DNA from: an uncultured Alphaproteobacteria bacterium
Lineage (GTDB): Bacteria; Pseudomonadota; Alphaproteobacteria; CAAHEQ01; UBA3637
Length of the DNA: 64,000 bases
Reading direction: 5' to 3'
NCBI GenBank assembly: GCA_944392555.1
Contig: CALXWZ010000004.1
Span: 26,525-90,524, forward strand
This document shows positions 11,637 through 64,000 of the stretch, piece by piece; position 1 is the first letter of the stretch, and each line of letters opens with the position of its first letter. The position numbers and the translations under genes were made by a program. The notes beneath the pieces were generated by a model, which worked only from the letters and a program-made list of their open reading frames with translations, made no database searches and was not told the origin of the DNA.

Positions 11637-11825
11637 ATGAAAGAGAATAACGACACACTCAATCAAGTAATGCTTAAATGTGCATGGGAATTAAGCGCGA
11701 GTAATCCACCCGAAATTACGGATGAAGAAATGCCCGCGTTGATTAAAGATTATCGCCGAAAAATTTTAATTGAACAAATTAAATATGTATGGCGAAAAAT
11801 TGCATTTTATTTGTTCCCGTTTTAA
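11637..11825 (+). CDS. Small 62-aa protein downstream of C4-like RNA 1
   Basis: GAAAGG RBS; paralog at 12455 with mostly silent nucleotide differences in the shared part. Confidence 0.75.
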   Translation: MKENNDTLNQVMLKCAWELSASNPPEITDEEMPALIKDYRRKILIEQIKYVWRKIAFYLFPF

Positions 11826-11843
11826 GTGCGGTGAATTTTTTAG

Positions 11844-11872
11844 TTGCAAATAAAAATTATTTCGTTTAGAAT
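11844..11872 (+). promoter_or_regulatory. Sigma70 promoter, unit 2
   Basis: TTGCAA-17 bp-TAGAAT. Confidence 0.75.
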
Positions 11873-11977
11873 AAATACGCTTGGTTGATTATGCCCGCCA
11901 AGCTAGGATTTAGTAGTCCGAGCGTCTATGAGGGCAGAAAATATCTGTCGGCATCCGCCACAGGGCGACGTTTATGC

Positions 11978-12080
11978 GTCAAGCTGAGGGTGGATGCCTG
12001 CCAAATAGAGGTGTCCGCCTGAATAAGCAGGGCTATTTTTCTCATAGACGATAGCTACTAACATCCACCCGCCTTACGAC
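11978..12080 (+). ncRNA. C4/CI-like antisense RNA, unit 2
   Basis: Same scaffold. CTCATAGACG (12041-12050) and CTACTAA (12055-12061) are complementary to upstream CGTCTATGAG (11923-11932) and TTAGTAG (11910-11916). Confidence 0.7.
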
Positions 12081-45245: not shown

Positions 45246-45646
45246 GCATGTCGGAACAGCGGTATGAGAGGTTGCCAGCTGTGTTTGCTGGGAAAAGATA
45301 AAGATGTGTTGATGAAGTCGTGTATTGAATGCCCTAGACAGTATTTGATAATTTTTTGATGTAATAAGGTGGCAAGAAAATGTTTGTATATCCGACTGAA
45401 TAAAAGCAGTGAAGCATTAATTTATCCGTTATTCGGATACAAAAAAACGGACTCTACAAAAAGGTCCGTCTAGATGATATAGCATAAAGAGGATTATAAG
45501 GGTATTTTTAAAATAATCAAGCAAAAATTTAGATATGATTATCTGATTGTAAAATAACAATTTTTTATAACTTCTTTTTGCGGGGCGATTTTGCATTGTA
45601 TCCCCTCTACATAAACGGACGTTTATGTAGAATGGGGAGAAAGAAA

Positions 45647-47776
45647 ATGAATATAAAACAAATAGTTAAATTGGCTTCTTTTTATGCAAAAAAAGTAAAA
45701 AACGGGGAATTTAAAGCGAATCGCGCAAAACAAGGGATAAAATCAGCGAATCAAAATAGCTTCACGCGCTTGAAAAATAATCAAAAAGCAAGATTTTTAA
45801 CAGACTCACAAACGCAAGGTGGATTGAATGGATTTTGCGGGTTGCGCGGATTAAGTGGCGTGCGAACAAGGGGAGTGCGCCTTACCGAATACGGGCGGAG
45901 TATGGTAGAAATGCTGGGCGTGTTGGCGGTGATTGGCGTGTTATCGGTTGCGGGAATAATGGGCTATCGGTATGCGATGACGATGTATCGGGCGAATGAA
46001 ACGGTTCATGAAATTAATTTACGGGCGTATGCAATCGCCCCGATTGCAGATAATAACACAACCGATCCCGAGAATCCCGAAATCGTGATGGAAATGGGCA
46101 ACACAACGAATCTCGGGTATCCGATAACAGCATATTGGTTGGAAGACCCGAAATATTTTGAAATAGAAGTGCAGAATGTGCCGGTAGCTGAATGCAAGAT
46201 GATATTGCGGACAGAATGGGCGTTGCCGATTATTATGAAAGTGGGCGATTTGGCATACGACGGGAACACCAGTATCTGCGACGGATTAACGGAGGCAGGG
46301 GAGCCGACAACAACGGCCGTGATGATCTTCCAATACGGGGCGCACTTGGAAGACGATATGTTGCCCTATCAAGAATGCCATAATGATGACGATTGTGCGA
46401 GCAAATGTGCAAGATGTTCGGCAGAGGGTGTATGTGTGTCAATCTGCGGGAGTAATGAACGGTGCAGGCAAGATATTTTAACGGGGAGTCAAGTCTGTTG
46501 CACGAGCGACAGGTGGGCAGGGCCTTATTGTTGCCCATCCACAATGAACGGCTATTGTTGCAACGTGTCAGGCGATCAATGTTGCCCCTGGTTTAAACCG
46601 CTCATAGATAAAAACGGCAACTGCTACACATGCGAGGAAGAAAATGGAATTGATGTAACAGGTGTCAATGAAAACTGCAACGCTTGCCCCAATAGAGAAG
46701 TGTGGAATAATAAATGCGTCTTGCCGTGTGGAGAAAATGAAATCCGCGGAACAAATGGAAAGTGTTATAGTTGTGATGAAAGCGACCCAATTTATTTGTA
46801 TTCTATGAAAAGTGAATGTTCAAAATGTTTAAATCGAATCTTGACGGGAAATGGGAGCGCATTTTGTTCATTGCCTTGCAAAGAAGGTACTTTTACAGGA
46901 AAAGATGGAAAATGCTATGAATGCTCCATCGAAAGAAACGTTAGTGTTCAAGGAGTAGTTAATAGTGGATGCGAACGTTGTGAGGGAAGGACACAAATCG
47001 GCAATATCTGCATGCTTGATTGTCCGGCGCAAGGAGAATTTCAATTCCGTGGTGACAATGGAAAATGCTATTCTTGCAATGAAGAAAATCCCGTCAATCT
47101 TGGAGGTGATTCATCTGCCTGTAACGCAATTTGTAAGAATCGTATTGCAAATGGATATGATAATGGATATTGCTCCTTGCCGTGTTTGGAAGGAACATTT
47201 ACAGATAGTGGGGGTAAGTGTCATAGTTGTAACACGCCGAAAAGTATCAGAGTATACGCAGTAAAGCATAGTGGTTGTGAACAGTGTAGTAATCGTCGAA
47301 AGGTTGGAAGTGCCTGTGTGTTAGATTGTCCAGAAAAGGGATATTTTCGCGGAAATGATGGAATATGTTATGCTTGTGATGAAGTTAACACCGTATTAAG
47401 TGATTCGGTGCTATGTACCGAGAGTTGCCCTAACCGTACGGCAAGTGGATATGATAATGGATACTGCTCATTACCGTGTGCAGATGGAGAATTTACTGGG
47501 CAAAGAGGGGAATGTCATTCATGTACGGAGGACAAAAATATTTCTACTTATGCCGTATATCACGATGGCTGTGAACGTTGTCCCGATACACGCAATCAAT
47601 ATAATAGCTATTGTGTTCCGAAATGTCCGGCGGATGCGCCACTCCGAGGTTGGGATAATAAATGTTATCCCTGTGATACAACAGAACGTGTGAATGTTCA
47701 GAATATAACCGATGCTTGTATGGAATGCTATGAAGAGCGCACATTAGATGGAAATTACTGTGTCTTAAAAGAATAA
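45647..47776 (+). CDS. Prepilin-type (class III signal) protein with long cysteine-rich repeat region
   Basis: G|RSMVEMLGVLAVIGVLSV pilin helix with E5 at 45893 onward, then repeated GxDGKCYSC...CxxCxNR units; GGAG RBS before the ATG at 45647. Confidence 0.85.
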   Translation: MNIKQIVKLASFYAKKVKNGEFKANRAKQGIKSANQNSFTRLKNNQKARFLTDSQTQGGLNGFCGLRGLSGVRTRGVRLTEYGRSMVEMLGVLAVIGVLSVAGIMGYRYAMTMYRANETVHEINLRAYAIAPIADNNTTDPENPEIVMEMGNTTNLGYPITAYWLEDPKYFEIEVQNVPVAECKMILRTEWALPIIMKVGDLAYDGNTSICDGLTEAGEPTTTAVMIFQYGAHLEDDMLPYQECHNDDDCASKCARCSAEGVCVSICGSNERCRQDILTGSQVCCTSDRWAGPYCCPSTMNGYCCNVSGDQCCPWFKPLIDKNGNCYTCEEENGIDVTGVNENCNACPNREVWNNKCVLPCGENEIRGTNGKCYSCDESDPIYLYSMKSECSKCLNRILTGNGSAFCSLPCKEGTFTGKDGKCYECSIERNVSVQGVVNSGCERCEGRTQIGNICMLDCPAQGEFQFRGDNGKCYSCNEENPVNLGGDSSACNAICKNRIANGYDNGYCSLPCLEGTFTDSGGKCHSCNTPKSIRVYAVKHSGCEQCSNRRKVGSACVLDCPEKGYFRGNDGICYACDEVNTVLSDSVLCTESCPNRTASGYDNGYCSLPCADGEFTGQRGECHSCTEDKNISTYAVYHDGCERCPDTRNQYNSYCVPKCPADAPLRGWDNKCYPCDTTERVNVQNITDACMECYEERTLDGNYCVLKE

Positions 47777-48132: not shown

Positions 48133-49020
48133 ATGGTACATTTTAATAAATACTTCTTTTTTTGTTTGATAAATGCAATCCTTGCTGTAAATGTGGGCGT
48201 TTTTTCGCAAGCGCAGGCAACCCTCCAAACGAAAACTATTTCCGAAGTTTTACAAGATGCGACCGTTCAGGTTAAACGGGCCGATAAGGCTGTGAATGAT
48301 ACGTCAACAGCTGTTGTGACAACTATTGAAGCCAAAACAAATGGCTTTAAAGAGCTTGTTAACGAAAATATTACCGATGTGAGTGGATATATCGGTGAGC
48401 AGTATCAAAATGTTACAGGATATGTGGATAGTCAAATTCAGGCCGGTGGTGAGTATATTGCAGATCAAGCACAAGATGTCGGTGAATATGTTGCCGATAG
48501 TGTCGGCCTCTCGGGAGAAGCCGGCGAGGGTTTCTCTTTGACACAAGATTTAGGGTGTTTAAAAGAAGCTGTTTCAAAGTATAGCAAATATATCAAACCG
48601 GCTGCTCAGTTGGTTTCCGGCGATATATTCGGAGCGGTTTCGGGTGTGCGTGATTCTTTCTACACGAAAACATCCGATAAATTATCCGGTTATTCCGTTT
48701 CGCAGGTGCAAAAGAATTTAAAAAAATTCGTGCAGGATGCAACGCAGACAGCTATTGGCGATTCAACACAGGTGATGAACGGCACGTCGCAGTTTGAGAA
48801 AGTGCAAGAGTCGGCACAGGATAATAAGAATGCAACTGCATCGTGTAAGCCGACAAATGTTAAAGAAGATATTAATAAAACAAATAGTGCCGGTATGACG
48901 ATGAACGTGATGGCAAACACGTTGCTTTCATTGGATATTACGGAACTTTCAATTCAAAGTGCGACAATTTATGATAACATTAACTCCGTTTCAATTAACG
49001 GCTTGCTGATGAAGAATTAA
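48133..49020 (+). CDS. Exported helical protein (possible VirB5-like) with 11-aa repeats
   Basis: GGAGG RBS, signal peptide ending AQA, GYIGEQYQNVT-type repeats. Confidence 0.6.
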   Translation: MVHFNKYFFFCLINAILAVNVGVFSQAQATLQTKTISEVLQDATVQVKRADKAVNDTSTAVVTTIEAKTNGFKELVNENITDVSGYIGEQYQNVTGYVDSQIQAGGEYIADQAQDVGEYVADSVGLSGEAGEGFSLTQDLGCLKEAVSKYSKYIKPAAQLVSGDIFGAVSGVRDSFYTKTSDKLSGYSVSQVQKNLKKFVQDATQTAIGDSTQVMNGTSQFEKVQESAQDNKNATASCKPTNVKEDINKTNSAGMTMNVMANTLLSLDITELSIQSATIYDNINSVSINGLLMKN

Positions 49021-49032
49021 GGGAGAGAAACC

Positions 49033-49917
49033 ATGAAGAAGTCTTTTAAATTTTTCGGATTGATTTTAGCAGGGGTGATTCTCTTCCCTACGGTTTTGTC
49101 GGCCCAAGTGATTACAAAAGACGATAAGGAACTTTTGAATTTAGGGAAACAAGTTTATAATGAGGGAGAAAGCTTGATTCAATCTGTTCAATCTCTGCAA
49201 CAGAGCGTAACGCGCGCGATTGATTTGGGCGCATATATGGACACAATTTTTGATGTGAGCTTTCTAATTCCGAAACCGGAACTTTCTTCCGATGTTGTTG
49301 ATTCTGTGCCGAAAACAGAAGGTGATTCGGCATCTGGAGCGGGAGATATTGCTTCATCTGCCACATCAGCCGTCGGAGGCGGTGATGGTGCTTCGCAACA
49401 ATTTGAAAGCTCTTCCAAGGTTAAAGCCTCCGTAAGTAATAACATGCAAGTGCGTGATACAAGTCAGGAATCCTCAACGGGTAATGCCGATGTAGATAAT
49501 GTGGTTTCGGCTATGACGGGTGGAGAGGTGTCTTCCGGATCTCGATCGGATGAAATAAGCCGTAAAAAAGCGCAACTTGCAAAATCAAAACAAGCGTTTG
49601 CACGGTATGCGTTGGCAACGGCACTTGTTCATCGCACGCTTGCACACAGAACGTTTGAGGATAACAAAGAAATTGCTCAGGAACAGGCCGCCAAAACAAC
49701 AACCATTCGTGAAACGCATACGGGCAAATCTGTTGGAAACATGGCTTTGGCAGATACGTTTAACAGATTATTGATGTCGCAAGCGGCGGCAAACGGATTA
49801 AGTGCCTTTTCCGCTATGGATGATATGGAAGGCAAAATTGATTTTAATCTGCGCGGGATTACCGATAAAGCCACAGGCGGAGTATTGGGAAATGTCGGTG
49901 GTATTTTGGGGCAATAG
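49033..49917 (+). CDS. Exported helical protein (possible VirB5-like)
   Basis: Signal peptide ending LSA-Q; operonic; helical C-terminal half. Confidence 0.6.
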   Translation: MKKSFKFFGLILAGVILFPTVLSAQVITKDDKELLNLGKQVYNEGESLIQSVQSLQQSVTRAIDLGAYMDTIFDVSFLIPKPELSSDVVDSVPKTEGDSASGAGDIASSATSAVGGGDGASQQFESSSKVKASVSNNMQVRDTSQESSTGNADVDNVVSAMTGGEVSSGSRSDEISRKKAQLAKSKQAFARYALATALVHRTLAHRTFEDNKEIAQEQAAKTTTIRETHTGKSVGNMALADTFNRLLMSQAAANGLSAFSAMDDMEGKIDFNLRGITDKATGGVLGNVGGILGQ

Positions 49918-49928
49918 AGGAGGCGGTT

Positions 49929-50696
49929 ATGATGAATAAAATTATTTTATATACAGTGGGAGCTATATTTTTATCAAATACCGCAGTGGCGCAGATTCAA
50001 ATTTTAACGCCTTATCCGGTGAGTGAAAATTTGGCATATCCCGAGAAGATATTGCAAACGGTGTATGCACAACTATCCGGCGAGGATGATAAAGAAAAAA
50101 ATGAGCAAGATAAGAAAAAAATAGAAATGCGCGATCCGAAAAAAGATTCGGCCGAGGTTAAGACAAATCAAGGAAATCCGGAAAGTTCTGAATTTCCGCC
50201 CTATGGTGACGAGAAATTAAGAGCCGCATTAGCCAAGAAAGAACCCTCAATTCCGGAAGTGGAAGGCGTAATTAAAGAAACATTCGTTTATCAATCGGAG
50301 ACATTGAACGAAACAGGCAATGTGGAAGTCGATAAGAAATCATCCGATACATCGGCCGAAGCGGAAGACGGCACATTGGAAAAATTACAGATGCAAACGA
50401 TTTTAACATACGAAAACGGACGGGCATTGGCGCGACGTGCATTAGATTTAATTGAAAAAGCACAAAAAGATGCCGAAGAAATAAAAGCTGAAAACGATGC
50501 TCGCACCACAACCGGCTCGATACAAAAAGGTATGCCCTCATCCGTTATGTTCCGCACACAGCAGTTGCTGAATGAAATTGCAACTTTGCGGAATAGTTAT
50601 ATTGAGATTAATGCAATTAACACCATTCAAGGAACGGAAGTTTCAAAGTCGGGTGGTCTTGTTGAGGATGTGTTAAATACGGTAACGGGAGGGTAA
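49929..50696 (+). CDS. Exported helical protein (possible VirB5-like)
   Basis: Signal peptide ending AVA-Q; operonic. Confidence 0.6.
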   Translation: MMNKIILYTVGAIFLSNTAVAQIQILTPYPVSENLAYPEKILQTVYAQLSGEDDKEKNEQDKKKIEMRDPKKDSAEVKTNQGNPESSEFPPYGDEKLRAALAKKEPSIPEVEGVIKETFVYQSETLNETGNVEVDKKSSDTSAEAEDGTLEKLQMQTILTYENGRALARRALDLIEKAQKDAEEIKAENDARTTTGSIQKGMPSSVMFRTQQLLNEIATLRNSYIEINAINTIQGTEVSKSGGLVEDVLNTVTGG

Positions 50697-50697
50697 G

Positions 50698-51510
50698 ATG
50701 ACAGGAAAGAAAGTGCTTATATATGGCTTTTTATCCGGTATGATTATATTGTCGGCAAGTGCTTGCTTTGCGGCGGGAACACCGGTGACCGACCCTGAAC
50801 GGGACGCAAAAGGTGTTTTGCAACAAGCTGAATCGCTTGCTGATAAAGCACAACAGGAAATCATCAAAGCAGAGGAGAAAAAATCCGAAGTTGCCGAACA
50901 TGGAAATGCAAATTGCAGTGCAAATCCGCAAAATACAAAAGAAAACGGCGCTATTAAAACAGAAGTGTTTGAATACTTATATGATGAAGTGTTAGATTCC
51001 GGTTTTGAAGATGAAGCGGATGAGATTATTAAGCCCGCCGAAACATATGCTGAAAATCTTAAAAAGGTTAAGGAAACCTTTTTTGCGCAACCGAATGAGG
51101 ATAGTGGATTAACGGAGTTGGGTGAAAAAGTTAATAAGGTAACATCGGCTGCCGGTTTAGATATGAGTAAGGCAGGATTAAGTACGGAAGAAATCAAAAA
51201 AATCAGAGAGATTCGTGAAGAGTATGCCAGTCAGGTAGCTGCAAAAAATCTTAAAATTTCACTGGACTTACGCGAAAAAATGGCTGAAGATTTTGAGTCA
51301 ATACAAAAAACGCAGACAGCCGGATGTAATCAGTTACAAGGTTTGATGATGGATAACAGAAATTTAGTGGCGCTGATTAAGGAAACATCATCGGATATTA
51401 TGATTCAGATTTTAACGCTGGAATCAATGGGTGCCAAAATGCTTTTAAAAGAAGATGCGGAATTGTTGAGTGTTCCTAAAAAAGTATCGGATGAGGAGGA
51501 AAAATCATGA
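50698..51510 (+). CDS. Exported helical protein (possible VirB5-like)
   Basis: Signal peptide followed by GTPVTDP, similar to the G-x-P-V-x-D mature N-terminus of VirB5/TrbJ proteins. Confidence 0.6.
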   Translation: MTGKKVLIYGFLSGMIILSASACFAAGTPVTDPERDAKGVLQQAESLADKAQQEIIKAEEKKSEVAEHGNANCSANPQNTKENGAIKTEVFEYLYDEVLDSGFEDEADEIIKPAETYAENLKKVKETFFAQPNEDSGLTELGEKVNKVTSAAGLDMSKAGLSTEEIKKIREIREEYASQVAAKNLKISLDLREKMAEDFESIQKTQTAGCNQLQGLMMDNRNLVALIKETSSDIMIQILTLESMGAKMLLKEDAELLSVPKKVSDEEEKS

Positions 51511-52379
51511 AGAAGGTAATGGGTATCGGTGTTGTGATTTTATTCCTGATGTGTGTTGGGTTGAGCGGGGAAGCACTTTCTTCCGAGTGTTGCCCATCTC
51601 CACCCTCATGTGTGCCGACATTGGCTTGCCCACTAGAAAAAGTCGGCGGGCAAACTTTTCAGGAAACGAATAAGGTTATTCAAAAAGTTTCAACCGCCTA
51701 TGAAAGCGTTTCGCAGGCTTATCGGAAAGTCACAAAAACAATTTCAAAAACGCGTAAGGCCATTGTTTCAGCAGTTGATAACGTGAAGGATGCCGTATCC
51801 GATGCAGCGAAATGGCCGCTGGAATATGTGGGCGAACAAGCGGGCCTTTTGAAAGAGGAGGAAGAGGATAAGGAAGGCGTTACGCAAGATAATTCGCATA
51901 GCGATACAACAAAAGTGAGCGAACGGATTACGAAGAATTTAGAAACGTATGAAGAAGAAATAAAAAGCGACTATGCCAGCGAGTATTTTACGGTTGAACG
52001 CCGGCGTTATATTCGTCAACAAGCAACGATTACTCTTATGGCTCGGATGTTGACAATAAAAGCCAAGTTAAAAGATTTAAAAGAATTGGTTGATGAGGTT
52101 TCCGGAGATGTAGAAAAAAGTGAAGAACAGGCGAGTGCTGCTTCGGACGGTTCAATGGATACGGCTAAAAATAATGAAACGGTTATATTGAAAGCCAATC
52201 AGCAGTTAAGATTAATCTGGTTTAAATTGTTGGCCTATCAGCGCACGATTGAAGCAATTAAATTGGAGTTTGCTGCAAATCAATCCATTTCGGGAATGAA
52301 AATTGTAAAGAAAGTTCCGGAAATACAGTCATCCGGTTCTGATGGCGGTGGAACAATTAAAACAGCGGGGGATAAATAA
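51507..52379 (+). CDS. Exported helical protein (possible VirB5-like)
   Basis: Signal peptide, short Cys/Pro segment, helical remainder; overlapping start/stop. Confidence 0.6.
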   Translation: MKKVMGIGVVILFLMCVGLSGEALSSECCPSPPSCVPTLACPLEKVGGQTFQETNKVIQKVSTAYESVSQAYRKVTKTISKTRKAIVSAVDNVKDAVSDAAKWPLEYVGEQAGLLKEEEEDKEGVTQDNSHSDTTKVSERITKNLETYEEEIKSDYASEYFTVERRRYIRQQATITLMARMLTIKAKLKDLKELVDEVSGDVEKSEEQASAASDGSMDTAKNNETVILKANQQLRLIWFKLLAYQRTIEAIKLEFAANQSISGMKIVKKVPEIQSSGSDGGGTIKTAGDK

Positions 52380-53944
52380 TGAATCAAAAGAAAACAAGAT
52401 GCGTGCAGCACTTGCTTTGCGGGGTGATGACGGGAGCAATCATTTTCGCAGGTTTTTCGGTCGGGCAGGCGATGGCGCAGTTTGCACAAGTTCAGCCTTA
52501 TATTTCTCCTAAAAAAGAAATAACGGTGCCTGAAAATTATCAAACGTATTTATTAGAAGCCATGCGTATTCATGCAACTCAATATCAGATGAATACATTA
52601 TTGTCCACAACACATGCAAATGTTTTGGCAACGGATGCACAAGTGGCTGTGTTGGATGAGCAGGTGACGGCTTTGAATACGTGTAATGAAGAAAGATTAT
52701 CCGATGTTTATCAAAATCCGAAAGAGGCATGGGATAAAATGACAAGCGAGTATACGAATCGTGTGAATAATTTAAAAATTTACATAAACGCTTCCGAGCC
52801 GAGTCAAGCCGAAGATAATGCAGAGCAAGCGTTTCCGACATGGCGTGTCGGCAGAGAAGTGTTGATAGATGTATATGCCGAGCCTGAAAAATACGGAACA
52901 TTGCGTTCGCCCGACAGCGGATTTAAGCGCTGGAAAGATCAAGATTATATTTATGCCGAACAAGTGAATAATTTTTTGGTTGATGTTGTGCAAAAATTGG
53001 GTGTTTCTGCTGTGCCGGGTGTTTCTCGTGAAAATACATACTCTCAAAATGCTCAGGCGTATCAAGCATTTCTTGCCGATATGCGCAAAAATAATACGCA
53101 ACGGTATAATCGGTTAAGCAAGGAGCAACTTTCGTTCCCGTTACCGCCGGATCCATTGCCACCGGCAAATGAAATTATTAAGTTGACAGAGGATTCTTCA
53201 CAAGGCCAACTTTTCCCCGCCATGCCGGATCCGTGGGCGTATTATATGAAAAATCCAAATGTCAAACGATTGCCGAACGGGGAAATGAATGAGTATTATC
53301 AGCCGGATTCTTTGCGTTTGCGAATGGATGTGGCTTCCAAGAACATAGATAATCGGTTTGAAGTGTTTCAGCGCAAGAAAACAAGTTTGGCAACAACAAA
53401 AGAAACGGCTCGCTTGCATCGATTGGCGCAAGATAACGAAAAGGTGGCAGTTGAGAACAGTTTGAAACAATTAGGTATTCAAATGCCGTTTGATATTGAG
53501 CGCCCCGAAGCGCTTAAAGACGAATTGCTGAAACGCAAACGCGCTGCCATAGGAAAAGCGCGCACTTTATTGGCCGAGAAAGCAACGTATGATGCTTCCG
53601 GCATGAGTGATAACCTTGTGAAATTCCAATCATTAACATTGCAGGATAAATTAAAAGCATTGGATGAAATTGATCGTAATTCAGAGGACTATGCAACGGC
53701 AATTACACTTTTAAATTCGGATCAAAAAGTGCAAGATGAAATCTTTTTGGATGCTATGGAAAAAGATATAAACGGTGAAGCAATGTTGACGCAAGTGAAT
53801 GCAAAAGATGCGGAGCAATTAGTAAAGGCCGCACGAGCACAAGGCGCTCTTGTGCGCACCATTCAGGAAGAGCAACGCAAATATTTGGAAAAAGAACGCG
53901 CTAAAAAACTGAATGCCGATTGTTTTTTTGACGGTGATTTATAA
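52379..53944 (+). CDS. Exported hypothetical protein in the T4SS operon
   Basis: Signal peptide ending AMA-Q; 521 aa; translationally coupled. Confidence 0.7.
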   Translation: MNQKKTRCVQHLLCGVMTGAIIFAGFSVGQAMAQFAQVQPYISPKKEITVPENYQTYLLEAMRIHATQYQMNTLLSTTHANVLATDAQVAVLDEQVTALNTCNEERLSDVYQNPKEAWDKMTSEYTNRVNNLKIYINASEPSQAEDNAEQAFPTWRVGREVLIDVYAEPEKYGTLRSPDSGFKRWKDQDYIYAEQVNNFLVDVVQKLGVSAVPGVSRENTYSQNAQAYQAFLADMRKNNTQRYNRLSKEQLSFPLPPDPLPPANEIIKLTEDSSQGQLFPAMPDPWAYYMKNPNVKRLPNGEMNEYYQPDSLRLRMDVASKNIDNRFEVFQRKKTSLATTKETARLHRLAQDNEKVAVENSLKQLGIQMPFDIERPEALKDELLKRKRAAIGKARTLLAEKATYDASGMSDNLVKFQSLTLQDKLKALDEIDRNSEDYATAITLLNSDQKVQDEIFLDAMEKDINGEAMLTQVNAKDAEQLVKAARAQGALVRTIQEEQRKYLEKERAKKLNADCFFDGDL

Positions 53945-53960: not shown

Positions 53961-54599
53961 ATGTTTTCAAAATTACGCACACAAAATCTCGTTTACGGTA
54001 TGGGAGAGGGATTAGCCAAATTCTGGATGGTAATTGCCTCCATCATCATCGGTATTAACTTGTTTTTGATTTTAACATTGATACAAATGGCGCCGAAATT
54101 ACAAGTGATTGCGCAGATATTAACAACATCGCCCATGCAGTCAAACCAGCTATTGCAAACGGAACCCTTTTCATATAATGCGGGAGATAAAAAATTAATT
54201 GATGAAACGCTGATACGTTATTATATGGATGCGCGGTATACCTCATTTCAAGATAAAGACGAAATGCAACGACGCTGGGGCGGGGCAGGACCGGTGGCAA
54301 GGCTTTCAACACAGGATGTCTATCGTAAATTCGCAGGCGATTTAAAGGAAAAATTAACGGCGGTAAATAACTCAAATACCACGACGAATGTTGATATTAT
54401 TTCAATATCGCGATTAGATAATATTTTTACGATTGAATTTGATGTATATACATACGGACGGGGAAATGTGCGTTCGCAAAGGAAGGTTGCCGTTGTGACT
54501 GTCGGATACAATCCGGGACGGCGCTTTTTCAATGCTTCTTACTCAAATCCGTTCGGGATGTTTGTAAAATCATATCAAGAATCAGTGAAAAAAGGGTAG
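53961..54599 (+). CDS. virB8: Type IV secretion VirB8-family protein (copy a)
   Basis: Single N-terminal TM, IRYYMDARY, C-terminal NPFGMFVKSY motif. Confidence 0.75.
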   Translation: MFSKLRTQNLVYGMGEGLAKFWMVIASIIIGINLFLILTLIQMAPKLQVIAQILTTSPMQSNQLLQTEPFSYNAGDKKLIDETLIRYYMDARYTSFQDKDEMQRRWGGAGPVARLSTQDVYRKFAGDLKEKLTAVNNSNTTTNVDIISISRLDNIFTIEFDVYTYGRGNVRSQRKVAVVTVGYNPGRRFFNASYSNPFGMFVKSYQESVKKG

Positions 54600-54886: not shown

Positions 54887-55576
54887 ATGGCGAATCAGGA
54901 ATACGGAAGTCCCATAGGGGAGGATATCTCCGAAGAGGGGATGCGTGAACGGCGGTATTTATGGATGGCGCGCACATTTGCGTTGGTGGCCGTTGTTTCG
55001 TTTTTAAGCACAATTATGTTAATTATGGCTTTATATTCCTTGTTGCCGATTGTGCGTGTTCAACCGTTTTATTTAACAACGCTGAATAAGGATCAACAAG
55101 TTATCAGTGTTGTGCGACCGAATTTTCGTCAAATCAACATGCAGTTGTTAAGTGAATCGTTTATTCGGCAATATATTTTGGCGCGTCTGACCGTTGGCTC
55201 AAATATTGCCGAACTGGAACGGCGCTGGGGGATTGATGGAATTATTAACTGGATGAGTTCGGCCGTTGTGTATGAGGAATTCAGTAAAACAGCCGACATT
55301 GCCCTAAATCAAGCACGAAATGACGGGTTAACGCGCAATGTTAAGATACTGAATATTGTCCCGTTAAGAGCGGAGCAAAGTGGTGGAAACGTTTGGCGGG
55401 CAGAGATTGAATTGACTGATATGAAATACGGTGACTCCGCGCCTGTCAGAACGCGTTGGCTTGTGACGATGAAGGTTGAATTTCAAACCACCAGAAAGGG
55501 TTTAACGTGGGAAAAGCGTCTTAAAAATCCGCTGGGTTTTACGGTTGTCAGATTTGGTATTCAAAAACTTGATTAA
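54887..55576 (+). CDS. virB8: Type IV secretion VirB8-family protein (copy b)
   Basis: TM helix, VQPF, FIRQYILAR, C-terminal KNPLGFTV. Confidence 0.8.
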   Translation: MANQEYGSPIGEDISEEGMRERRYLWMARTFALVAVVSFLSTIMLIMALYSLLPIVRVQPFYLTTLNKDQQVISVVRPNFRQINMQLLSESFIRQYILARLTVGSNIAELERRWGIDGIINWMSSAVVYEEFSKTADIALNQARNDGLTRNVKILNIVPLRAEQSGGNVWRAEIELTDMKYGDSAPVRTRWLVTMKVEFQTTRKGLTWEKRLKNPLGFTVVRFGIQKLD

Positions 55577-56178: not shown

Positions 56179-57912
56179 ATGTCAAAACAAAAATCACACA
56201 GAAGAATTTGGCTTGCAACCGTTGCGATGGCATTGGTTGTATCCGTAAGTGCAACGGCACAATCCATTTTGCCGGCAAATGTGGAAACGGAACAAATGAT
56301 GGATGCCATTGCGCAAACGAACGGAGAATTTGATTCGGTGAATATGAATTACATGCATTCGCTCGGTATGCAACAAAAAGCGTGGAACGATCCGCTTTCG
56401 CATATGGGAGAAGGGCAATCCAAACCGGGATATTCAAAATATACGTGGACGCCAGATGTTATCTTGCCGATTCGTTTACGGGAAGGGATGATGACATTAA
56501 TTAATCTGCCGACATGGGAGTTGATTGAAAAAGTGCATATCGGTTCGCCCGAATCGTTTGGTGGCGAAATTGCGGCTCCGAACTCATTGCTTGTTTATGC
56601 CGATCCGTCGTATTTGGGGGTTGACAGCAATATGATTATTTTCGGCCGTTCGGGGAATCGCTATGTGTTCTATTTGCGCTCTGAAACATACAATACGGAA
56701 AAGATAACGCAATCGGTTGTGGATGTGCTTGTCGGTCCGCGGTATACGCCTGTTGAATACGGGGGAAAACTCGGAAATTTTAACGGAGCCACGACAACGG
56801 CAGGTTCGGGGACATTAACGGGATCCGGCTCTCCGGCATGGGCAAGCGGTCGTGGCAGCGGACAAAATCCGCAAATCGGTTTAAATACGGCTTCAACGGG
56901 TCCGAAAGATTGGTTAAAGAACATACCGGTTGATCCCGAGAGCTTTCACTTTGATATAGATATGTATTTGCCGAATCCGGCAGATGTTGATATTGCACCG
57001 GATAATGTTTGGCGCGATAACATTTTTACCTATATTGATTTCGGACCGAAGGCTTTAACAATGACACAACGCCCGATTGTGAATTTAATCGTGCAAGATA
57101 CGGAAGTGCCGGTCGGTTTCCGCACAAGCGGTCCGAACAGTCGGTTAATTGTCGTTGAAGGTATCGGGGATATGGTTTTACGGAATGGGCAAAAAATTAT
57201 TTGTTTAAAATTACGGCGTGATCCTTCTTCCGGATTAGAATATACGGATTACAGCGGATCGCAGAGTAATTCTATTACAAAGCCCTCAACGATTAGTCGC
57301 GAACCGGTTGATTTGATGCCGAAAGCGCAAAATGCGCCCGAAGCACCGACGGCGGAAGAGACAAGTGTTGCGCAAAATAATGCGCGTCAGATAGAAGCGT
57401 ATATGAATAATTTGCCGGCAAGCGGAACAACGGCTTCGGCAACGGCGCAACAACAGACAACAGCACAGGCAACAACGATTACCATTCCGCAACAAGCAGC
57501 CGTTATTTACGAACAAAATATGGCTCCGTTGCCGGCCATTCCGGCGCAGGTAATGAATTCACCGTCGGCATCGGCCAACATTGTCGGGGTTATTAATGAT
57601 GTTGTATCTACATCACCCGCAACGGCCTCAACGAATCGAGCCATGGTTGATCGGGAAACGATTTCGGTTGAGTTAGGCACGAATGCAGATATTTCGGCGC
57701 TTGAATCGATATGGGAAACAATCTACACACAAAATCAAGATACGTTGAAAGGATACGAACCGTATTATTCCGTTGATACAACGGCAGACGGCGGTGTGCG
57801 CGAGTTGTTCCGTTTGCGTGTCGGACCGGTGAAAGATGTGGATACGGCGGACAAGTTGTGTAAAAAACTCGGACGCAGAGGATTTTCTTGCTCGGTTATT
57901 CGCGTTCAATAG
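56179..57912 (+). CDS. virB9: Type IV secretion VirB9/TrbG-family protein with low-complexity linker and C-terminal SPOR domain
   Basis: Signal peptide, NRYVFYL, IAPDNVWRDNIFTYIDFG, LRNGQKIIC, and C-terminal FRLRVGPV...ADKLCKKL...C. Confidence 0.8.
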   Translation: MSKQKSHRRIWLATVAMALVVSVSATAQSILPANVETEQMMDAIAQTNGEFDSVNMNYMHSLGMQQKAWNDPLSHMGEGQSKPGYSKYTWTPDVILPIRLREGMMTLINLPTWELIEKVHIGSPESFGGEIAAPNSLLVYADPSYLGVDSNMIIFGRSGNRYVFYLRSETYNTEKITQSVVDVLVGPRYTPVEYGGKLGNFNGATTTAGSGTLTGSGSPAWASGRGSGQNPQIGLNTASTGPKDWLKNIPVDPESFHFDIDMYLPNPADVDIAPDNVWRDNIFTYIDFGPKALTMTQRPIVNLIVQDTEVPVGFRTSGPNSRLIVVEGIGDMVLRNGQKIICLKLRRDPSSGLEYTDYSGSQSNSITKPSTISREPVDLMPKAQNAPEAPTAEETSVAQNNARQIEAYMNNLPASGTTASATAQQQTTAQATTITIPQQAAVIYEQNMAPLPAIPAQVMNSPSASANIVGVINDVVSTSPATASTNRAMVDRETISVELGTNADISALESIWETIYTQNQDTLKGYEPYYSVDTTADGGVRELFRLRVGPVKDVDTADKLCKKLGRRGFSCSVIRVQ

Positions 57913-57995: not shown

Positions 57996-60900
57996 ATGCC
58001 AGAAAATAGAAGACAAAGCACCTCAGAACAATATATTAAAAAAAGCAATCGGAAACTGCTGTTCGGTGGGATATTGCTTTTATTTGTTTTTCTTATCGCA
58101 TTAGCGTTTATGTCTGAATCCAGGCGGCGCGGAGGTGAGGAATCTTCTATTAACTATGTGATAGAGCCGATTGAAAGCACGCCGACCAATACGGTTGAAG
58201 GTGATTTGTTTGCGCGCGGAGATGCTAAATTGAAGTTGGATCCGGCGCAAATTGATATGGATAATGTGGTTATCGGTTCGCAAGTGGAGGCTATTTTAAC
58301 TTTGACGGCTGAAAATACGCCGATACAATTTTTAGGCATGGATTTGGCGGAGGAGCAAACCGATGGATTTAGATTGGAAACAACATGTTCGCCCGATAAT
58401 CCGATTGAAGTCGGTAATACATGCATTATTAAGGTATTATGGAATCCGGTATCGTTGCGTCAGTTGCAAAATAATTTAACGATTCGGTGGAAAGAATATT
58501 CGCAAACGGCATTTCGCGAACAAACATCGGTTGTGCAGATTAAGGCGCAATCAACCGATTCGAAAGACTGTGTGATTTGCGAAAATGTGAATGCCCAAGA
58601 AGTCAAAGAACCGCGCATGGCGATGGGCCTGAACGGTGAGTTATACGAGGTAGACGGTGAAGGCTATATCACATTGCCGGATGGCACGCGGTTAAAAGTG
58701 ACGGAGAACGGCGTTGTTACTGATGATCAAGGAAACATCGTTGCGGTTGTTGAACCGGAATATATTGCGTTGAATATGAATAACGATTTAATGGGCAGTA
58801 TATCCGATACGAACGAAGTTATCGGTGCAAACGGTGAAAAATTCGGCAGAATGCTGGGAGATAAAACGATTGTTGATCCGAAATTAAATGTATTGGGGGC
58901 TGGAATTCCCGTTGTGTCGGTCATCAACGCACAAGGCAATGTTATCGGCAAAATGACGAAAGACGGCACGGTGGTTGACGGACAGAATAAAGTTGTCGGT
59001 AAAGTTTGGGTAGACGGGCAAGTTTTCTCGCTGGAAGGACAGCCGATGGGTTATGTGCGCCCATGGGGATTGGTTTCTGATTTTACGGGGAAAGTTATCG
59101 GCGCAATTATTCCGGACGGAACGGTGATTGACGGTAAAAACAATACGTTAGGACGAATTATGCCTAACGGGTTTGCCATCGGCAATCAAGGTGATCTTAT
59201 CGGTGCAACGATTCCGACAGGGGTTGGTATTGGATCGGGCTGCCAATTGGCAGGGAAAGTATTGTTGAATGGCGATGTAAAAGATTCATATGATCAGACG
59301 ATGGGAAAAGTGATGCCGGACGGGGCGATCGTTAACACAGACGGAGAAGAACAAGGTGCTGTTATTCCGCAGGGGCTGGTTATTAATGAAAAAGGCAAAG
59401 TTGTCGGTTTTATCAATTCCGAAGGGAAGGCTGTGAACGGAAAAGGAGCTATTATCGGGTGTGTTAATCCGGACGGGACGGTTGTTGCCGGCAAGAAATC
59501 AGTTGGGGCTGTTATGGCACGCGGACATGTCATCGGTTATGGATGTCAAGCTGTCGGTTCGGTATTTCCGAATGGTGAAGTTTATGATAATACCTTGAAA
59601 TCGTTGGGTCGAGTGATGCCGGATCGATTTGTGAGAAATAATGAAAATAAAATTATCGGTATTGTTGCAGCGCGTGGAGCAGCGGTGGCAGATGGTTGTC
59701 GCTTATTAGGATTGGTTTCATTGACGGGACAAGTCTTGGATATGCAAAATCAGCCTGTCGGTTGTATGACGCCTGAAAAAACAGTTATTAACAGTTCGGG
59801 TGAAACAATCGGAAGTGTTGCGCCGAAAGGAAGTGTTTATGACCAAAACGGTGCTTTGCTCGGTCGTGTCGGTTTTGACGGAAAAGTGCGTGATAAAGGC
59901 GGGAATGTTATCGGATGCGTGAATCCGGACGGAACGGTGACGGATACAAGCGGTAAGTTAATCGGTGAAGTATCGCAACATGCGCCCGGTGTTATTGTTG
60001 ACGGTTCGGGTAATCCGACGGGTTGGAGTAAAGTTGGAAATAAAATTTTTGATATTAACGGGAATGAAGTCGGTATTTTAAATAAGGACGGAGTTATTGT
60101 ATCCGAAACGGGTAAATATGTCGGATTTATTCCGAAAGACGGACACATCTTTTCGCCTGACGGATTGATTTTGGGTCGCTATTCCTCTAAAGTGGGGTAT
60201 GCCGTTAATCAAAATAATGAACGATTTGCAAAAATTTTATTTGATATGACGGCTATCAGCGGTGATACGGGAGCAATCGTTGGAGCATTAATTCCTGATA
60301 ACACGGGGTTTGTTGATAAAAACAGTGGCTTTCTGGGGCAAGTCCAAATGGATGGGACGTTGCGAAATAAAGACGGGTCGGTTATCGGCGCTATTCGCGC
60401 AGATGGAACCGTGATTGATAAAGACGGAAATGTTATCGGCTTCAAAGTAGTTGAGGGCAATGTTGCGACGGGTAATGGAGTTGTCGTTGGGACGGTAGAT
60501 GCAACAGGTGCTGTTTTATCGGAGGCTAAAACAGAAATCGGACATATTTTAGGGAATGGGCTTGCTGTTTCATCTGACGGAAAGAAGTTAATCGGCGGAG
60601 TGGTTCCGCAATCGGCTTTGGCAATGGATGCCCGCGGATTGGTCGGCTATTTAAATGCCAAAGGCGAAGTGCAAGGGCTTTCGGGTGAATATGTCGGTAA
60701 AGCAACGCCGTTCGGACTTGTTCTTGCCGATGACGGGACGGTTGTTGCTCAATTGGTGCGCTTGGGTGTTTTTGTTGATGAAAACGGTAAGACGGTCGGT
60801 TGGACTTCACTGGAAGGCACGCTGACGGGAACGGATAATAAGCCTGCCGGAAAGATAAACGTGAACGGATTAGCGTTTGATCGAATGAATAATTTATTGG

Positions 60901-63900
60901 GAAGTATGGTTAAACGCGGTATGATTATCGGCAAAAACGGTGAATTTATCTCTTCCGTTGCTGCAAATAATCGCGTTTTGCAAAAAGATCGTTTGCTGGG
61001 AAGCGCAACGGCGTCACCCTATATCTATACAACGGATAATGTATTATTGGGCCGCTTGTTGCCGGCCGGCGTTGCTGTCGGAAATGATGGGCGGTTGCTG
61101 GGTTGGACACGTGGTGACGGCTCTATCGGTACGCAAAGTGAAACAGTCGGCGCTGTCTTACTTGATAACAGAGTTGTGAACACACGTGGCAATATTTTAG
61201 GATATTATATTCCGCTCGGTAGTGCCGCGTATGATAATGAGGGTAAAACCGTTGGAATTATGAGCATTAACGGAACAATTATTTCGGCTGCCGGACAGGC
61301 GCGTGGTGAATTGCGCGGAGGTAATTATGTGGCGCGTAACGGTGAAATAATTGGTCGCTTGGTATCTGATATGCCATATGTCAGCAATAATTTGTTGGGA
61401 AAAACAAACGGATTGGCTCAGATGACGGGTGACGTTGTGACGGCCAGTAACGGTAAGTCGGTCGGCAATATGATGACGAACGGAACGGTTATCAATTTAG
61501 CGCGTCAGATTATCGGAAAAATGACGATATACGGAGTTCCCGCGACGAATGCGCTTTCACCGATCGGGCAAGCATATTTGAACGGTGAAGTTGTCTCACG
61601 GGCAAAGACGGAAGGAGTTATCAGTGGAACGCAAGCCATTTATAACACCGAAAACAGAATTATCGGTAGTGTGTTGCCGTTGGAAACGGTTATCGGCAAA
61701 ACAGGGAATATTATCGGTCGGCCGACGGGAACGCGCCAAATTGCCGATAGAACAGGCAAGCAAGTTGCTGTTCAAATGACGTTTGGTACGGTATTGATGA
61801 CGGATAACAGTTGGGTCGGCGGTATTATGCCGAACGGAACTGCCGTAAACGATGACGGTGAATTGATTGGAACGATTGCCGGAGACGGTGTTGTATTAGA
61901 TAAAGAAGAATTGTTCGCCGGACGGGTATTGGGCGACGGATCGGTTGCAACTGTTGCCGATCGTGAGTTGTATAATACCATGCCGTATGGCGGTGCGGTA
62001 ACGGCACAAGGTTTGCCGTTCAGCTATCGTAATCGTGTTTTGGGAACAACCTCTATCAACGGTGATGTGGTAGATTATGCCGGAGCAAAAACGAATCGGA
62101 TTTTGGACGATGGAACAATCCTTGGAAAAAGTGAACCGCTAGATGGTGTTGTTTTACCAATCGTTCCGGCCGTTAATTACAATGGTGATTTGCTTGGCAC
62201 GTTGAACGGTAAGGGGCAAATCGTGTTGCCGAATGGCGAAGTAAGTGGCAAGGTTGCCGTGAATGAAACGGTTAAAGGGGCCGGTGAATATGAAATTATC
62301 GGGACCTTGATACCGAACAAAACAATTACGAACGATTGTAAAGTTGTGGGTGTTCCGGCATTAAACGGTCAGGTGATTGATGCGCGCGGAACGGTCATCG
62401 GACGCGTAACTCCCGATAAATGGGCCGTGAATGCTGCGGGCGAACGAATCGGACGCGTAACGCGAGTTGGTATTGTGGTTTCTCCGGATGGAACATACCT
62501 CGGTCGGACGTTGCCTGACTCAACCGTGGTAGATACGGAAGGCATTTCGCTCGGTTGTGCCAGAAATGACGGAACCGTTGTGGATAATACAGGCAATATT
62601 ATCGGCGGAGTGATTGAAAGAGGGCCTGTTCTGGGTAAAGATGGTAAACCGCTCGGACGGGTGAAAGCGAACGGAACCGTGGTTGATGCCAGAGGAAATG
62701 AAATCGGAAAAGTGCGGGCAGACGGTATGGTTATTGATGCTGCCGGTAATGTGATCGGACATGTTGTTCCGAGAGACAGAGAGATTATATACGATGAAAA
62801 CGGCAATATCAAAGGAACGTTCGGTGCGGACGGCACATTCTATGATCCGAAAACGGGAAAACCCGTATTCCGAATTGATAAAGACGGGAATGTGTATGAT
62901 GCCGAAAATAATTTAATCGGCAGATATAAAAACGGTGAATTTGTGGATACAAAAGGCAACGCATTAGACGGCATGACGGTGTTGCTTGATAAAAATGGTA
63001 AAGCTTTCGGAATTGTGTCGGGGTGCGATGTCTTAAATTCCTACGGTGAAAAAATCGGCACGATTTTGGCAAACGGTAACGTTGTGGATTTAAACGGCAG
63101 TGTGTTTGCCAGAATATTGGGTGACGGCACGATTTTACAAGACGGAAAAGTGTTAGGAAAAGTTGCCGGCACAAATCCGCGCCTGGATAGATGCGGTATT
63201 CAAACGCAAGATACACCTTCTGTTAAACAAGTCGGGCGACTCGGCGCAGACGGTTATATTTATGATGAGAACGGTAATCAGATCGGCCGTGTTGACGAGG
63301 ACGGAAATATTTACGATAAAGACGGCAATTTAATCGGTCGTGTCGGCGAGGATGGCGTTATTTACGATGCAAACAACAATCCGATCGGTTACATTGATGA
63401 AAACGGTAATGTGCACTTGTATAATGGAAAAGAGTTGGGTGATTTATCCGGCGGAGCAGGTGACTCGGGGATTGCCGGGCGCGCTATCTATATAGGAAAT
63501 CAAAAGTATGCCGTTTCGGATAAGGGCTCTATTGTAAACAGCGATGGAACGATTATCGGTTATATGGGTGAGGACGGAAAGCCGTATACGCTGGACAATC
63601 GTGTGTTGACGGCCAGTGGTGATGTGACGGGTCGTTCACGCCCGAATGTCTATCGGCGGCCGAAAGTTTCGCAAGAACAGGTTGAAGAGATGAAAAACCT
63701 CTTAACGCAAAAGCGCCAGAGTATGCGTGCCGGTATTAAAAATGTTATTAAGCCGGACGGACGGATTTTGGCCAAAGGAAAACGTCAACAGGCTTCTGAT
63801 TGGGGCGATGAATTTAAGACGGTATCATCATGGCCGGTAGATATGTCGCGGATGATTTTGCAAGATAAAGCCATTCCGGCAGTTATTGTGCGGTCCATTG

Positions 63901-64000
63901 ATTCGCGCTATAAAGATGTTCCTGTGACGGCGATTGTGGAAAGAAACATCTACTCTGAGCAAGGACGAAATATTTTGATACCGGCGGGTAGTCGTGTAAT
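57996..64000 (+). CDS. virB10: Giant VirB10/TrbI-family protein (over 2000 aa, partial at window end) with Ig-like domain and long Gly-rich beta repeats
   Basis: ATG at 57996 (MPENRRQ...), TM helix, many DGTVxDxxGxVIG units. In the same frame at 63843 onward: MSRMILQDKAIPAVIVRSIDS...VERNIYSEQGRNILIPAGSRV (TrbI domain). Absent from the ORF track, consistent with no stop before the window end. Confidence 0.85.
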   Translation, partial: MPENRRQSTSEQYIKKSNRKLLFGGILLLFVFLIALAFMSESRRRGGEESSINYVIEPIESTPTNTVEGDLFARGDAKLKLDPAQIDMDNVVIGSQVEAILTLTAENTPIQFLGMDLAEEQTDGFRLETTCSPDNPIEVGNTCIIKVLWNPVSLRQLQNNLTIRWKEYSQTAFREQTSVVQIKAQSTDSKDCVICENVNAQEVKEPRMAMGLNGELYEVDGEGYITLPDGTRLKVTENGVVTDDQGNIVAVVEPEYIALNMNNDLMGSISDTNEVIGANGEKFGRMLGDKTIVDPKLNVLGAGIPVVSVINAQGNVIGKMTKDGTVVDGQNKVVGKVWVDGQVFSLEGQPMGYVRPWGLVSDFTGKVIGAIIPDGTVIDGKNNTLGRIMPNGFAIGNQGDLIGATIPTGVGIGSGCQLAGKVLLNGDVKDSYDQTMGKVMPDGAIVNTDGEEQGAVIPQGLVINEKGKVVGFINSEGKAVNGKGAIIGCVNPDGTVVAGKKSVGAVMARGHVIGYGCQAVGSVFPNGEVYDNTLKSLGRVMPDRFVRNNENKIIGIVAARGAAVADGCRLLGLVSLTGQVLDMQNQPVGCMTPEKTVINSSGETIGSVAPKGSVYDQNGALLGRVGFDGKVRDKGGNVIGCVNPDGTVTDTSGKLIGEVSQHAPGVIVDGSGNPTGWSKVGNKIFDINGNEVGILNKDGVIVSETGKYVGFIPKDGHIFSPDGLILGRYSSKVGYAVNQNNERFAKILFDMTAISGDTGAIVGALIPDNTGFVDKNSGFLGQVQMDGTLRNKDGSVIGAIRADGTVIDKDGNVIGFKVVEGNVATGNGVVVGTVDATGAVLSEAKTEIGHILGNGLAVSSDGKKLIGGVVPQSALAMDARGLVGYLNAKGEVQGLSGEYVGKATPFGLVLADDGTVVAQLVRLGVFVDENGKTVGWTSLEGTLTGTDNKPAGKINVNGLAFDRMNNLLGSMVKRGMIIGKNGEFISSVAANNRVLQKDRLLGSATASPYIYTTDNVLLGRLLPAGVAVGNDGRLLGWTRGDGSIGTQSETVGAVLLDNRVVNTRGNILGYYIPLGSAAYDNEGKTVGIMSINGTIISAAGQARGELRGGNYVARNGEIIGRLVSDMPYVSNNLLGKTNGLAQMTGDVVTASNGKSVGNMMTNGTVINLARQIIGKMTIYGVPATNALSPIGQAYLNGEVVSRAKTEGVISGTQAIYNTENRIIGSVLPLETVIGKTGNIIGRPTGTRQIADRTGKQVAVQMTFGTVLMTDNSWVGGIMPNGTAVNDDGELIGTIAGDGVVLDKEELFAGRVLGDGSVATVADRELYNTMPYGGAVTAQGLPFSYRNRVLGTTSINGDVVDYAGAKTNRILDDGTILGKSEPLDGVVLPIVPAVNYNGDLLGTLNGKGQIVLPNGEVSGKVAVNETVKGAGEYEIIGTLIPNKTITNDCKVVGVPALNGQVIDARGTVIGRVTPDKWAVNAAGERIGRVTRVGIVVSPDGTYLGRTLPDSTVVDTEGISLGCARNDGTVVDNTGNIIGGVIERGPVLGKDGKPLGRVKANGTVVDARGNEIGKVRADGMVIDAAGNVIGHVVPRDREIIYDENGNIKGTFGADGTFYDPKTGKPVFRIDKDGNVYDAENNLIGRYKNGEFVDTKGNALDGMTVLLDKNGKAFGIVSGCDVLNSYGEKIGTILANGNVVDLNGSVFARILGDGTILQDGKVLGKVAGTNPRLDRCGIQTQDTPSVKQVGRLGADGYIYDENGNQIGRVDEDGNIYDKDGNLIGRVGEDGVIYDANNNPIGYIDENGNVHLYNGKELGDLSGGAGDSGIAGRAIYIGNQKYAVSDKGSIVNSDGTIIGYMGEDGKPYTLDNRVLTASGDVTGRSRPNVYRRPKVSQEQVEEMKNLLTQKRQSMRAGIKNVIKPDGRILAKGKRQQASDWGDEFKTVSSWPVDMSRMILQDKAIPAVIVRSIDSRYKDVPVTAIVERNIYSEQGRNILIPAGSRV

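Follow-up and report, generated by a model that had tools for sequence, protein, structure and literature searches.

A giant VirB10 of uncultured Alphaproteobacteria with a repeat array predicted to form a compact superhelix

[quoted passage not shown] Helicobacter pylori CagY is a VirB10 homologue of 1927 amino acids (aa) with long repeats between the anchor and the TrbI domain; these are short alpha-helical motifs and form the most polymorphic part of the protein (PMC10706595). DotG/IcmE of type IVB systems also has a long repeat region ahead of TrbI, and Legionella DotG (1000-1500 aa) uses pentapeptide repeats (PMC6761968). The Rickettsia rvh system is chromosomal, vertically inherited and scattered in islets, with duplicated virB8, several virB6 and no recognisable virB5 (PMC2653234). 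Beta-flowers (PF21784, PF21785 and DUF3659, PF12396) are described as single shallow barrels of four, five or six hairpins, for which a [DNEQ]xxG motif at the hairpin tip is typical (PMC10584680). In the present study, we analysed the virB10 gene at the end of a 64,000-nucleotide stretch of DNA (the window; positions 26,525 to 90,524 of contig CALXWZ010000004.1, assembly GCA_944392555.1, genome G000) from an uncultured alphaproteobacterium.

The protein shares with canonical VirB10, TrbI and TrwE the N-terminal anchor, the C-terminal TrbI domain with the VirB10 fold and the gene order virB8-B9-B10-B11; however, an ASH-type immunoglobulin-like (Ig) domain and about 30 folded modules replace the linker, and in related families the protein is split. 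CagY, whose repeat region bears cysteines, differs from our protein, which has beta-hairpin modules, purifying selection and a length-conserved core, and a Pfam scan of the protein found no match to the CagY_M family. Some DotG/IcmE-like proteins have the same module, so that the analogy with DotG drawn in the initial annotation of the window goes further than was recognised there; however, the DotG/IcmE model NF033900 gave no hit at E 0.01, and VirB11, VirB4 and VirD4 of type IVA stand alongside. The system resembles rvh in layout, but VirB10 of Rickettsia typhi has 481 aa, and here there are one virB9, one virB4, two virD4 and an upstream cluster of secreted orphan genes. Short antiparallel strands, [DNEQ]xxG tips and profile matches over cut-off are common to the array and the beta-flowers, but the modules here have three hairpins, number about 30 and are predicted to stack into a superhelix. 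We consider it fairly probable that this protein, the sole VirB10 of the genome, belongs to a type IVA system encoded on the chromosome and that its roughly 30 three-hairpin modules form a predicted rigid and compact superhelix, likely a periplasmic strut, the copies in the ring likely making a large collar.

Protein layout and predicted fold of the repeat array

The frame from the ATG at 57996 is open up to the window end (2001 aa), and its genomic continuation closes at G000:C4:91320 with no internal stops, so that the proposed giant VirB10 of over 2000 aa was borne out, with no in-frame stop or frameshift ahead of TrbI. It is the longest open reading frame of this 1.5-Mb, 98% complete genome. 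Frameshift or misassembly was ruled out as the source of the giant frame by the continuous genomic frame, by relatives throughout the order and by independent assemblies. Two DNA assemblies of other studies have the entire gene on one contig at about 95% identity with the frame intact, one without gaps and the other with frame-preserving gaps only.

Counted from the N-terminus, 20 cytoplasmic residues and a hydrophobic helix are followed by the Ig domain, by repeats over about 1650 aa and by a helical linker; the TrbI domain comes next, and an acidic tail (about 115 aa) closes the protein (coordinates in Table 1). In a hydropathy scan, the 19-residue segment at aa 21 alone exceeds 1.6, in agreement with the anchor noted earlier, and the N-terminal motif is conserved among relatives. 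The segment suspected to be Ig-like has an ASH/PapD-like fold, matching the CEP192 ASH domain (Z 13.2, root-mean-square deviation (rmsd) 2.7 A, 118 residues) and the VesB Ig domain (Z 12.2); Pfam PF22544 and PF15780 give weak hits, and the cysteines of the domain are kept in 99-100% of 162 sequences. The NCBIfam VirB10 match begins at aa 1950, at window position 63843, the very place named for the core at the outset, and PF03743 matches aa 1954-2147 (E 5e-31, 108 bits against a cut-off of 35). The equivalog NF038091 scores 107 bits, under its cut-off of 220, and thus a divergent VirB10 subfamily is indicated. In structure, the top seven matches of the TrbI domain are all VirB10 homologues (Z 9.9-14.0; next 6.1), including Xanthomonas VirB10 (Z 14.0, rmsd 4.2 A, 170 residues), TrwE (Z 13.8) and CagY (Z 13.7). 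By domain, fold and gene context, the protein is a member of the VirB10 family.

The repeat unit is 17 residues long: a strand of five residues leads through a turn into a strand of three, and a DxxG turn completes it. In one unit out of every three the tight turn is missing and the chain passes over to the module that follows, so that a module of 51 aa has three hairpins. The autocorrelation of glycine peaks at lags 17, 34 and 51 (0.39 at 17, against a maximum of 0.10 in 200 shuffles), and the unit profile finds 67 units against a mean of 2.2 over 30 shuffles. A module profile finds 27 copies here, a partly circular count as the profile was built from them, and 11-37 in other families, with none in a shuffled and one in a reversed region. 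The Gly-rich repeats of the initial annotation therefore stood above chance, but their length is nearer 1650 than 1700 aa. The array is regular, length-conserved and nearly free of insertions and deletions in its core (aa 248-1640), and variable in length at aa 1700-1850. The Pfam beta-flower profiles match it over cut-off (PF21785 311 bits, PF21784 116 bits), and the [DNEQ]xxG tip motif is present; these labels capture the hairpin motif, not the three-hairpin period.

The GC dipeptides described as scattered are actually one half of cysteine pairs 73 residues apart. Four such pairs are spaced exactly so: 416/489, 517/590, 568/641 and 1448/1521. Among the 162 sequences, the last two pairs are invariant. 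For Cys416/489, 147 sequences have both cysteines and 15 have neither, with none discordant; for Cys517/590, 135 have both, 26 have neither and one is discordant. This paired gain and loss is consistent with disulfide bonds that join adjacent modules in an oxidising compartment. Purifying selection acts on the repeats as it does on the TrbI domain, as indicated by the ratio of nonsynonymous to synonymous substitution rates (dN/dS) of 0.025-0.10 against 0.013-0.040 for TrbI (four of six pairs with unsaturated dS).

AlphaFold2, run with 65-sequence alignments, predicted aa 61-1150 as one rigid body (predicted local distance difference test (pLDDT) 88, predicted template modelling score (pTM) 0.82); for aa 1101-2170 the values were 82 and 0.62, and the array is predicted to be all-beta. 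Covariation, computed on the 162-sequence alignment and averaged over 27 modules, clusters at module offsets 0, 1 and 4. Offset 0 corresponds to hairpin contacts inside the module, and the offset-1 cluster takes in the cysteine pair. At offset 4 the peak is 6.4 and the eighth-best value 5.1, whereas 300 randomly drawn sets of module pairs lying far apart reached at most 5.72 and 3.44; the n+5 signal is weaker (5.2) and inside the range of random maxima. Together the n, n+1 and n+4 contacts describe a coil that turns once in about four modules. A compact rigid superhelix, and not a long extended stalk, is what the structure prediction, the cysteine pairs and the covariation point to. By volume, a solid rod of 172 kDa would be 17, 11 or 7 nm long at a diameter of 4, 5 or 6 nm, and the rod is predicted to be about 5 nm wide and 10 nm long.

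No global match to the array was found among solved folds in Foldseek and VIA-align searches: the best Foldseek rows for the repeats (Rhs, teneurin and clostridial CROP repeats) had template modelling scores (TM-scores) of at most 0.11, and in VIA-align the Ig and TrbI domains took up the rows. When PDB sequences were searched with a profile of the repeats, nothing appeared at E 1. Since the fold searches used models with Ig or TrbI domains and never the repeats alone, a new fold is not proven. In Foldseek superpositions the rmsd was about 30 A against compact Rhs shells, compared with 64-88 A for several viral proteins of great length, which hints weakly at a compact form.

Split forms, distribution and other carriers of the module

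In the order of family f56, the gene is present in 150 of 151 genomes, and all 43 loci of the family examined (40 picked across the ranking, mostly on the plus strand, and three earlier ones) are split into two genes. Gene 1 has the anchor, the Ig domain and repeats and ends in a conserved motif; gene 2, which starts within a few bases of its end, has a signal-peptide-like leader, repeats and TrbI. The cut lies at the module crossover, and the TrbI-bearing half of split families is without an N-terminal inner-membrane helix. In f104, f150 and f54, one locus each shows the same split, those of f150 and f54 also having assembly gaps or further breaks. Stop-codon read-through was rejected because the 46 loci vary in stop codon and in frame. 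A common origin of all split forms is neither supported nor rejected (p value of the approximately unbiased test, p-AU, 0.174).

For the ends of one f56 pair, the predicted binding score was 0.84, against 0.00 for the best of three controls; the mark used for this score is reached by 116 of 157 solved complexes and by 2 of 215 mismatched pairs. The prediction has about 240 contacts, its runs agree on at least 85% of contacts with a partner pLDDT of at least 85, and the interface spans about 250 residues on each side of the split. The best contacts fall in the n+1 and n+4 registers, as does covariation in the unsplit order, which comes from independent sequences. The halves are thus predicted to dock, with the superhelix continuing across the split. 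The searches made found no similar complex among solved structures, which makes recall of a known complex by the model less likely; the score is still not a measurement. In the window's own order, one member (L162:2312-7045, G057) has a shorter frame, 1578-1605 aa, which lies within a long contig away from its ends and corresponds to the protein from aa 611 on, possibly an independent split or a frameshift.

The C-terminal part of the protein was matched in 75 of 80 genomes of the window's order, in all 16 genera. The frames are of 2049-2612 aa in 68 of the 75, and of the seven shorter ones three were seen running off contig ends. In a survey of 401 Alphaproteobacteria genomes, 141 had a TrbI match; among 150 of the 183 matches, 17 lie in frames over 1000 aa, from nine families, with genomes all of 1.1-2.5 Mb, and a tenth family with the giant form came from a separate search. 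VirB10 frames of the class sample are mostly 350-620 aa, so that the canonical protein is, as stated earlier, much shorter, the giant being about five times the usual length.

In a tree of 56 TrbI domains, the giant forms and one family with an 820-aa repeat-free form make a single clade (99/97). This 820-aa VirB10 (L083:4963-7419, L084:4734-7229), nested in the giant clade on a long branch, comes from 0.9-Mb genomes and has the anchor, the Ig domain and 16 cysteines. Close to the giant clade stand VirB10 proteins of 500-570 aa that begin like lipoproteins; of these L086 was scanned, which has the ASH-type Ig domain but lacks repeats. It is likely that the combination of Ig and TrbI came first and that the repeats were inserted once, an order of events inferred from a tree rooted by midpoint only. 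In four other families (L086:11655-13358, L087:11334-13046, L088:11593-13302 and L089:11986-13503), a lipoprotein-like signal replaces the membrane helix of the short VirB10, which may be without the standard inner-membrane anchor; the gene of L089 comes after a cluster of pilin-like genes.

The closest sequencing runs are labelled chicken gut and other gut metagenomes, and relatives that bear a name are uncultured Alphaproteobacteria, of which several came, judging by their titles, from human samples or animal gut. The 80 genomes of the order yielded no ATP/ADP translocase, where no control was detected either, and the lifestyle clues in the available part of PMC11257099 could not be tied to the lineage.

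A module profile search of 1.84 billion representatives gave 1537 hits, of which the best 150 comprise this family, DotG/IcmE-like proteins, CpaB and one OmpA-domain protein. Of 31 hits scanned, 16 match the DotG model, all under cut-off, and two pass the CpaB cut-off. At least 15 DotG/IcmE-like proteins of uncultured bacteria have 4-8 modules at a spacing of about 54 aa, and one cluster member is named icmE of a Gammaproteobacterium. The module sits at a matching position in the DotG/IcmE-like and CpaB proteins; all carriers being envelope proteins, a general periplasmic brace would fit. One giant TrbI protein (P0166, 1973 aa) has several Ig-like segments that flank 14 repeat modules on both sides. 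A partial homologue searched in the ESM Atlas retrieved nothing beyond clusters of the family itself, plain TrbI ones and those of CagY type; automatic clusters with the same domain combination already exist there.

The secretion system and its gene neighbourhood

The features of the cluster are collected in Table 1. Directly downstream of virB10 lies virB11 (TIGR02788 1e-38 against 5e-5 for DotB), which upholds the early assignment to type IVA. The genes for VirB4, VirB2, a VirB6-like protein and two VirD4 are on three other contigs, mostly among housekeeping genes, and the system, spread over four contigs, is a scattered chromosomal type IVA system. The ATPases VirB4, VirB11 and VirD4 are over the Pfam cut-offs and under the whole-protein cut-offs of NCBIfam, and VirB6 is barely over its cut-off (27.8 against 25.9 bits). 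No DotA was found in the genome, where no control was detected either.

Table 1. Features of the virB10 cluster in the window
Feature	Position	Strand	Evidence or remark
Five co-oriented genes, 255-295 aa, signal-peptide-like starts	48133..52379	+	
521-aa protein, signal-peptide-like start, no known family	52379..53944	+	directly upstream of virB8, conserved across the order
virB8 copy 1	53961..54599	+	PF04335 E 4e-14
virB8 copy 2	54887..55576	+	PF04335 E 2e-15
virB9 with C-terminal SPOR domain	56179..57912	+	PF03524 E 2e-12, PF05036 E 4e-6
virB10, 2266 aa	57996..64000, continuing 796 bases past window end (G000:C4:84520-91320)	+	only TrbI match in genome
Cytoplasmic N-terminus (aa 1-20) and inner-membrane helix (aa 21-39)	57996..58112	+	hydropathy 2.93; topology inferred
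ASH/PapD-like Ig domain (aa 72-189) with Cys131 and Cys143, then CxxC (192, 195)	58209..58580	+	structural match
Repeat array (aa ~206-1870), 17-aa beta-hairpin units in 51-aa three-unit modules, ~30 modules	58611..63605	+	
Helical linker before TrbI domain (aa 1893-1928)	63672..63779	+	predicted helices H793-813 and H822-828 of second model
Start of TrbI/VirB10 outer-membrane core domain (aa 1950-2147; remainder past window)	63843..64000	+	

VirB9 has a long low-complexity linker before its SPOR domain, a cell-wall-binding domain unusual for VirB9. The six secreted-looking orphan genes upstream of virB8 (48133-53944, plus strand) include four with homologues in 41-59 of the fetched loci, and at least four are weak paralogues; the 521-aa protein, with homologues in 59 of these loci, had no convincing match in Pfam, NCBIfam or PDB. 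By position and size the five shorter genes would fit VirB5, and further searches gave the secreted genes no tie to it; a cytochrome c hit on one of them, covering only 40 residues, was taken as chance. In other families (L070, L072 and L079), a single much larger gene of 750 to over 1000 aa stands in their place.

Three tandem membrane-protein genes (692, 443 and 528 aa) lie at G000:C1:198858-203917 (minus strand), and only the first matches VirB6/TrbL. The virD4 genes, at G000:C2:177969-180152 and C1:352013-354247, are each next to uncharacterised genes, which could be substrates. Near one of them are genes with putative cas9-like (1179 aa) and cas1-like starts (G000:C2:183939-188361, minus strand). 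Between rplQ and the secretion cluster, a gene for about 714-732 aa (window 45578-47776, plus strand) encodes an N-terminal helix like that of type IV pilins and, after it, cysteine-rich repeats, with no Pfam or NCBIfam match. Positions 1-12000 of the window have a G+C content of 29-35% against 39-47% over the remainder, which suggests a foreign island.

Competing explanations and biological meaning

In the periplasmic strut that we favour, each module would pack on the next and on the fourth along to make a thick rod. With the usual VirB10 copy number of 14-16 (PMC12624023), as many rods may encircle the stalk region of VirB5/VirB6 and hold the outer-membrane complex braced on the inner membrane; as a collar, they would contribute some 2.4-2.8 MDa around the channel. 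The Ig domain is probably where VirB10 meets VirB8. A rod held by the stacking of modules could presumably be cut into two polypeptides without loss of the link. We also infer, less firmly, that the machine serves protein export, to a host or to a neighbouring cell, and not conjugation, from the two coupling proteins, the lack of relaxases of three families and the near-universal retention of the system.

Several points weigh against this reading. The shape and size of the superhelix are derived from scores, lists of contacts and an estimate of volume. The covariation alignment has little depth (162 sequences, an effective number of about 95), and covariation of single pairs was too noisy to read, hence the use of module averages only. 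The score of the split pair is the model's own confidence, with a calibration that is only rough for the alignments used, and the leaders of gene 2 were judged by eye and might be uncleaved anchors. The summed repeat length ranges between families from 1273 to over 3000 aa, so that there is no fixed ruler across the clade. A collar presupposes lateral contacts between VirB10 copies. No PF07996 (VirB5) match was found in the genome, where no control genome passed the cut-off; the relaxase search covered three families only; and no substrate was identified. Contigs from RNA libraries span much of virB10, but such libraries may contain DNA, and we make no claim of expression.

It is rather improbable that the repeats are instead a long extended stalk across an unusually wide periplasm. 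About 95 hairpin units could reach far if set end to end, and the length of the core is conserved within the order; however, the pTM over 1090 residues, the n+4 covariation and the wide split interface all need a coil folded back on itself, and the Foldseek contrast gives a weak hint in the same direction. Thus, of the two envelope roles raised in the initial annotation, the large periplasmic collar is favoured, and the greatly extended stalk gives way to a compact superhelix of about 7-17 nm by volume. Beta-flower profiles over cut-off and the tip motif (PMC10584680) could also be read as a string of independent barrels that bind lipid or cell wall, and the SPOR domain of VirB9 makes contact with the cell wall plausible. 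This we regard as very improbable: the period is three hairpins (51 aa) and not four, five or six, covariation closes inside these 51 aa and connects n, n+1 and n+4, and the prediction is one rigid body.

Repeats of CagY vary by recombination and are reported to be surface-associated (PMC6761968, PMC12624023), and a reach to the surface or a pilus for host contact has been proposed for CagY and DotG repeats; the variable length of the array end (aa 1700-1850) would agree with such a role. It is quite improbable here, as the low dN/dS and the indel-free core are unlike a diversifying surface antigen, and an array between inner-membrane anchor and TrbI is periplasmic in the standard VirB10 layout (PMC12624023). 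Finally, the strut may hold while the machine moves DNA and exports no effectors, by ComB-like uptake or by transfer with an unrecognised relaxase. The TrbI domain scores 100 bits on ComB10 and 107 on VirB10, both far under cut-off, and a chromosomal, near-universal system would fit competence. Nevertheless, we find this unlikely, since VirB11 and two VirD4 coupling proteins are present, whereas the Helicobacter ComB system is not known to have either. None of the relaxase families searched (PF03432, PF03389 and PF08751) was found in the 98% complete genome, while controls were detected. The scattered layout, duplicated virB8 and several virB6-like genes resemble the Rickettsia system instead (PMC2653234).

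A broader joint reading, which we hold tentatively and rather doubt as a whole, would be an undescribed type IVA class across a clade of small-genome, host-associated Alphaproteobacteria that depend on it. Its collar would be multi-megadalton and of a new superhelical fold; in one large order, an inner-membrane half and a secreted outer-membrane half would dock through the coil, with the link that senses the ATPases crossing a non-covalent joint; and type IVA, type IVB and Tad pilus machines would all have adopted the module as a brace in the periplasm. In the main text of open-access papers, we found neither this giant protein nor a split VirB10 described; the giant size alone, which the initial annotation had taken as distinctive while overlooking CagY, is not new (PMC10706595).

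With more than 1000 residues predicted confidently, the array has no solved match, and it suggests the true shape of many envelope-machine proteins that are now labelled beta-flower or DUF3659. In the split form, the scaffold would bridge both membranes without being one chain, and a natural split conserved across an order makes the need of a covalent link for assembly and ATPase sensing testable. The system is retained in nearly every genome of two uncultured orders, at least the first of them gut-dwelling, despite their small genomes. Its substrates, once found, should reveal the lifestyle of both orders.

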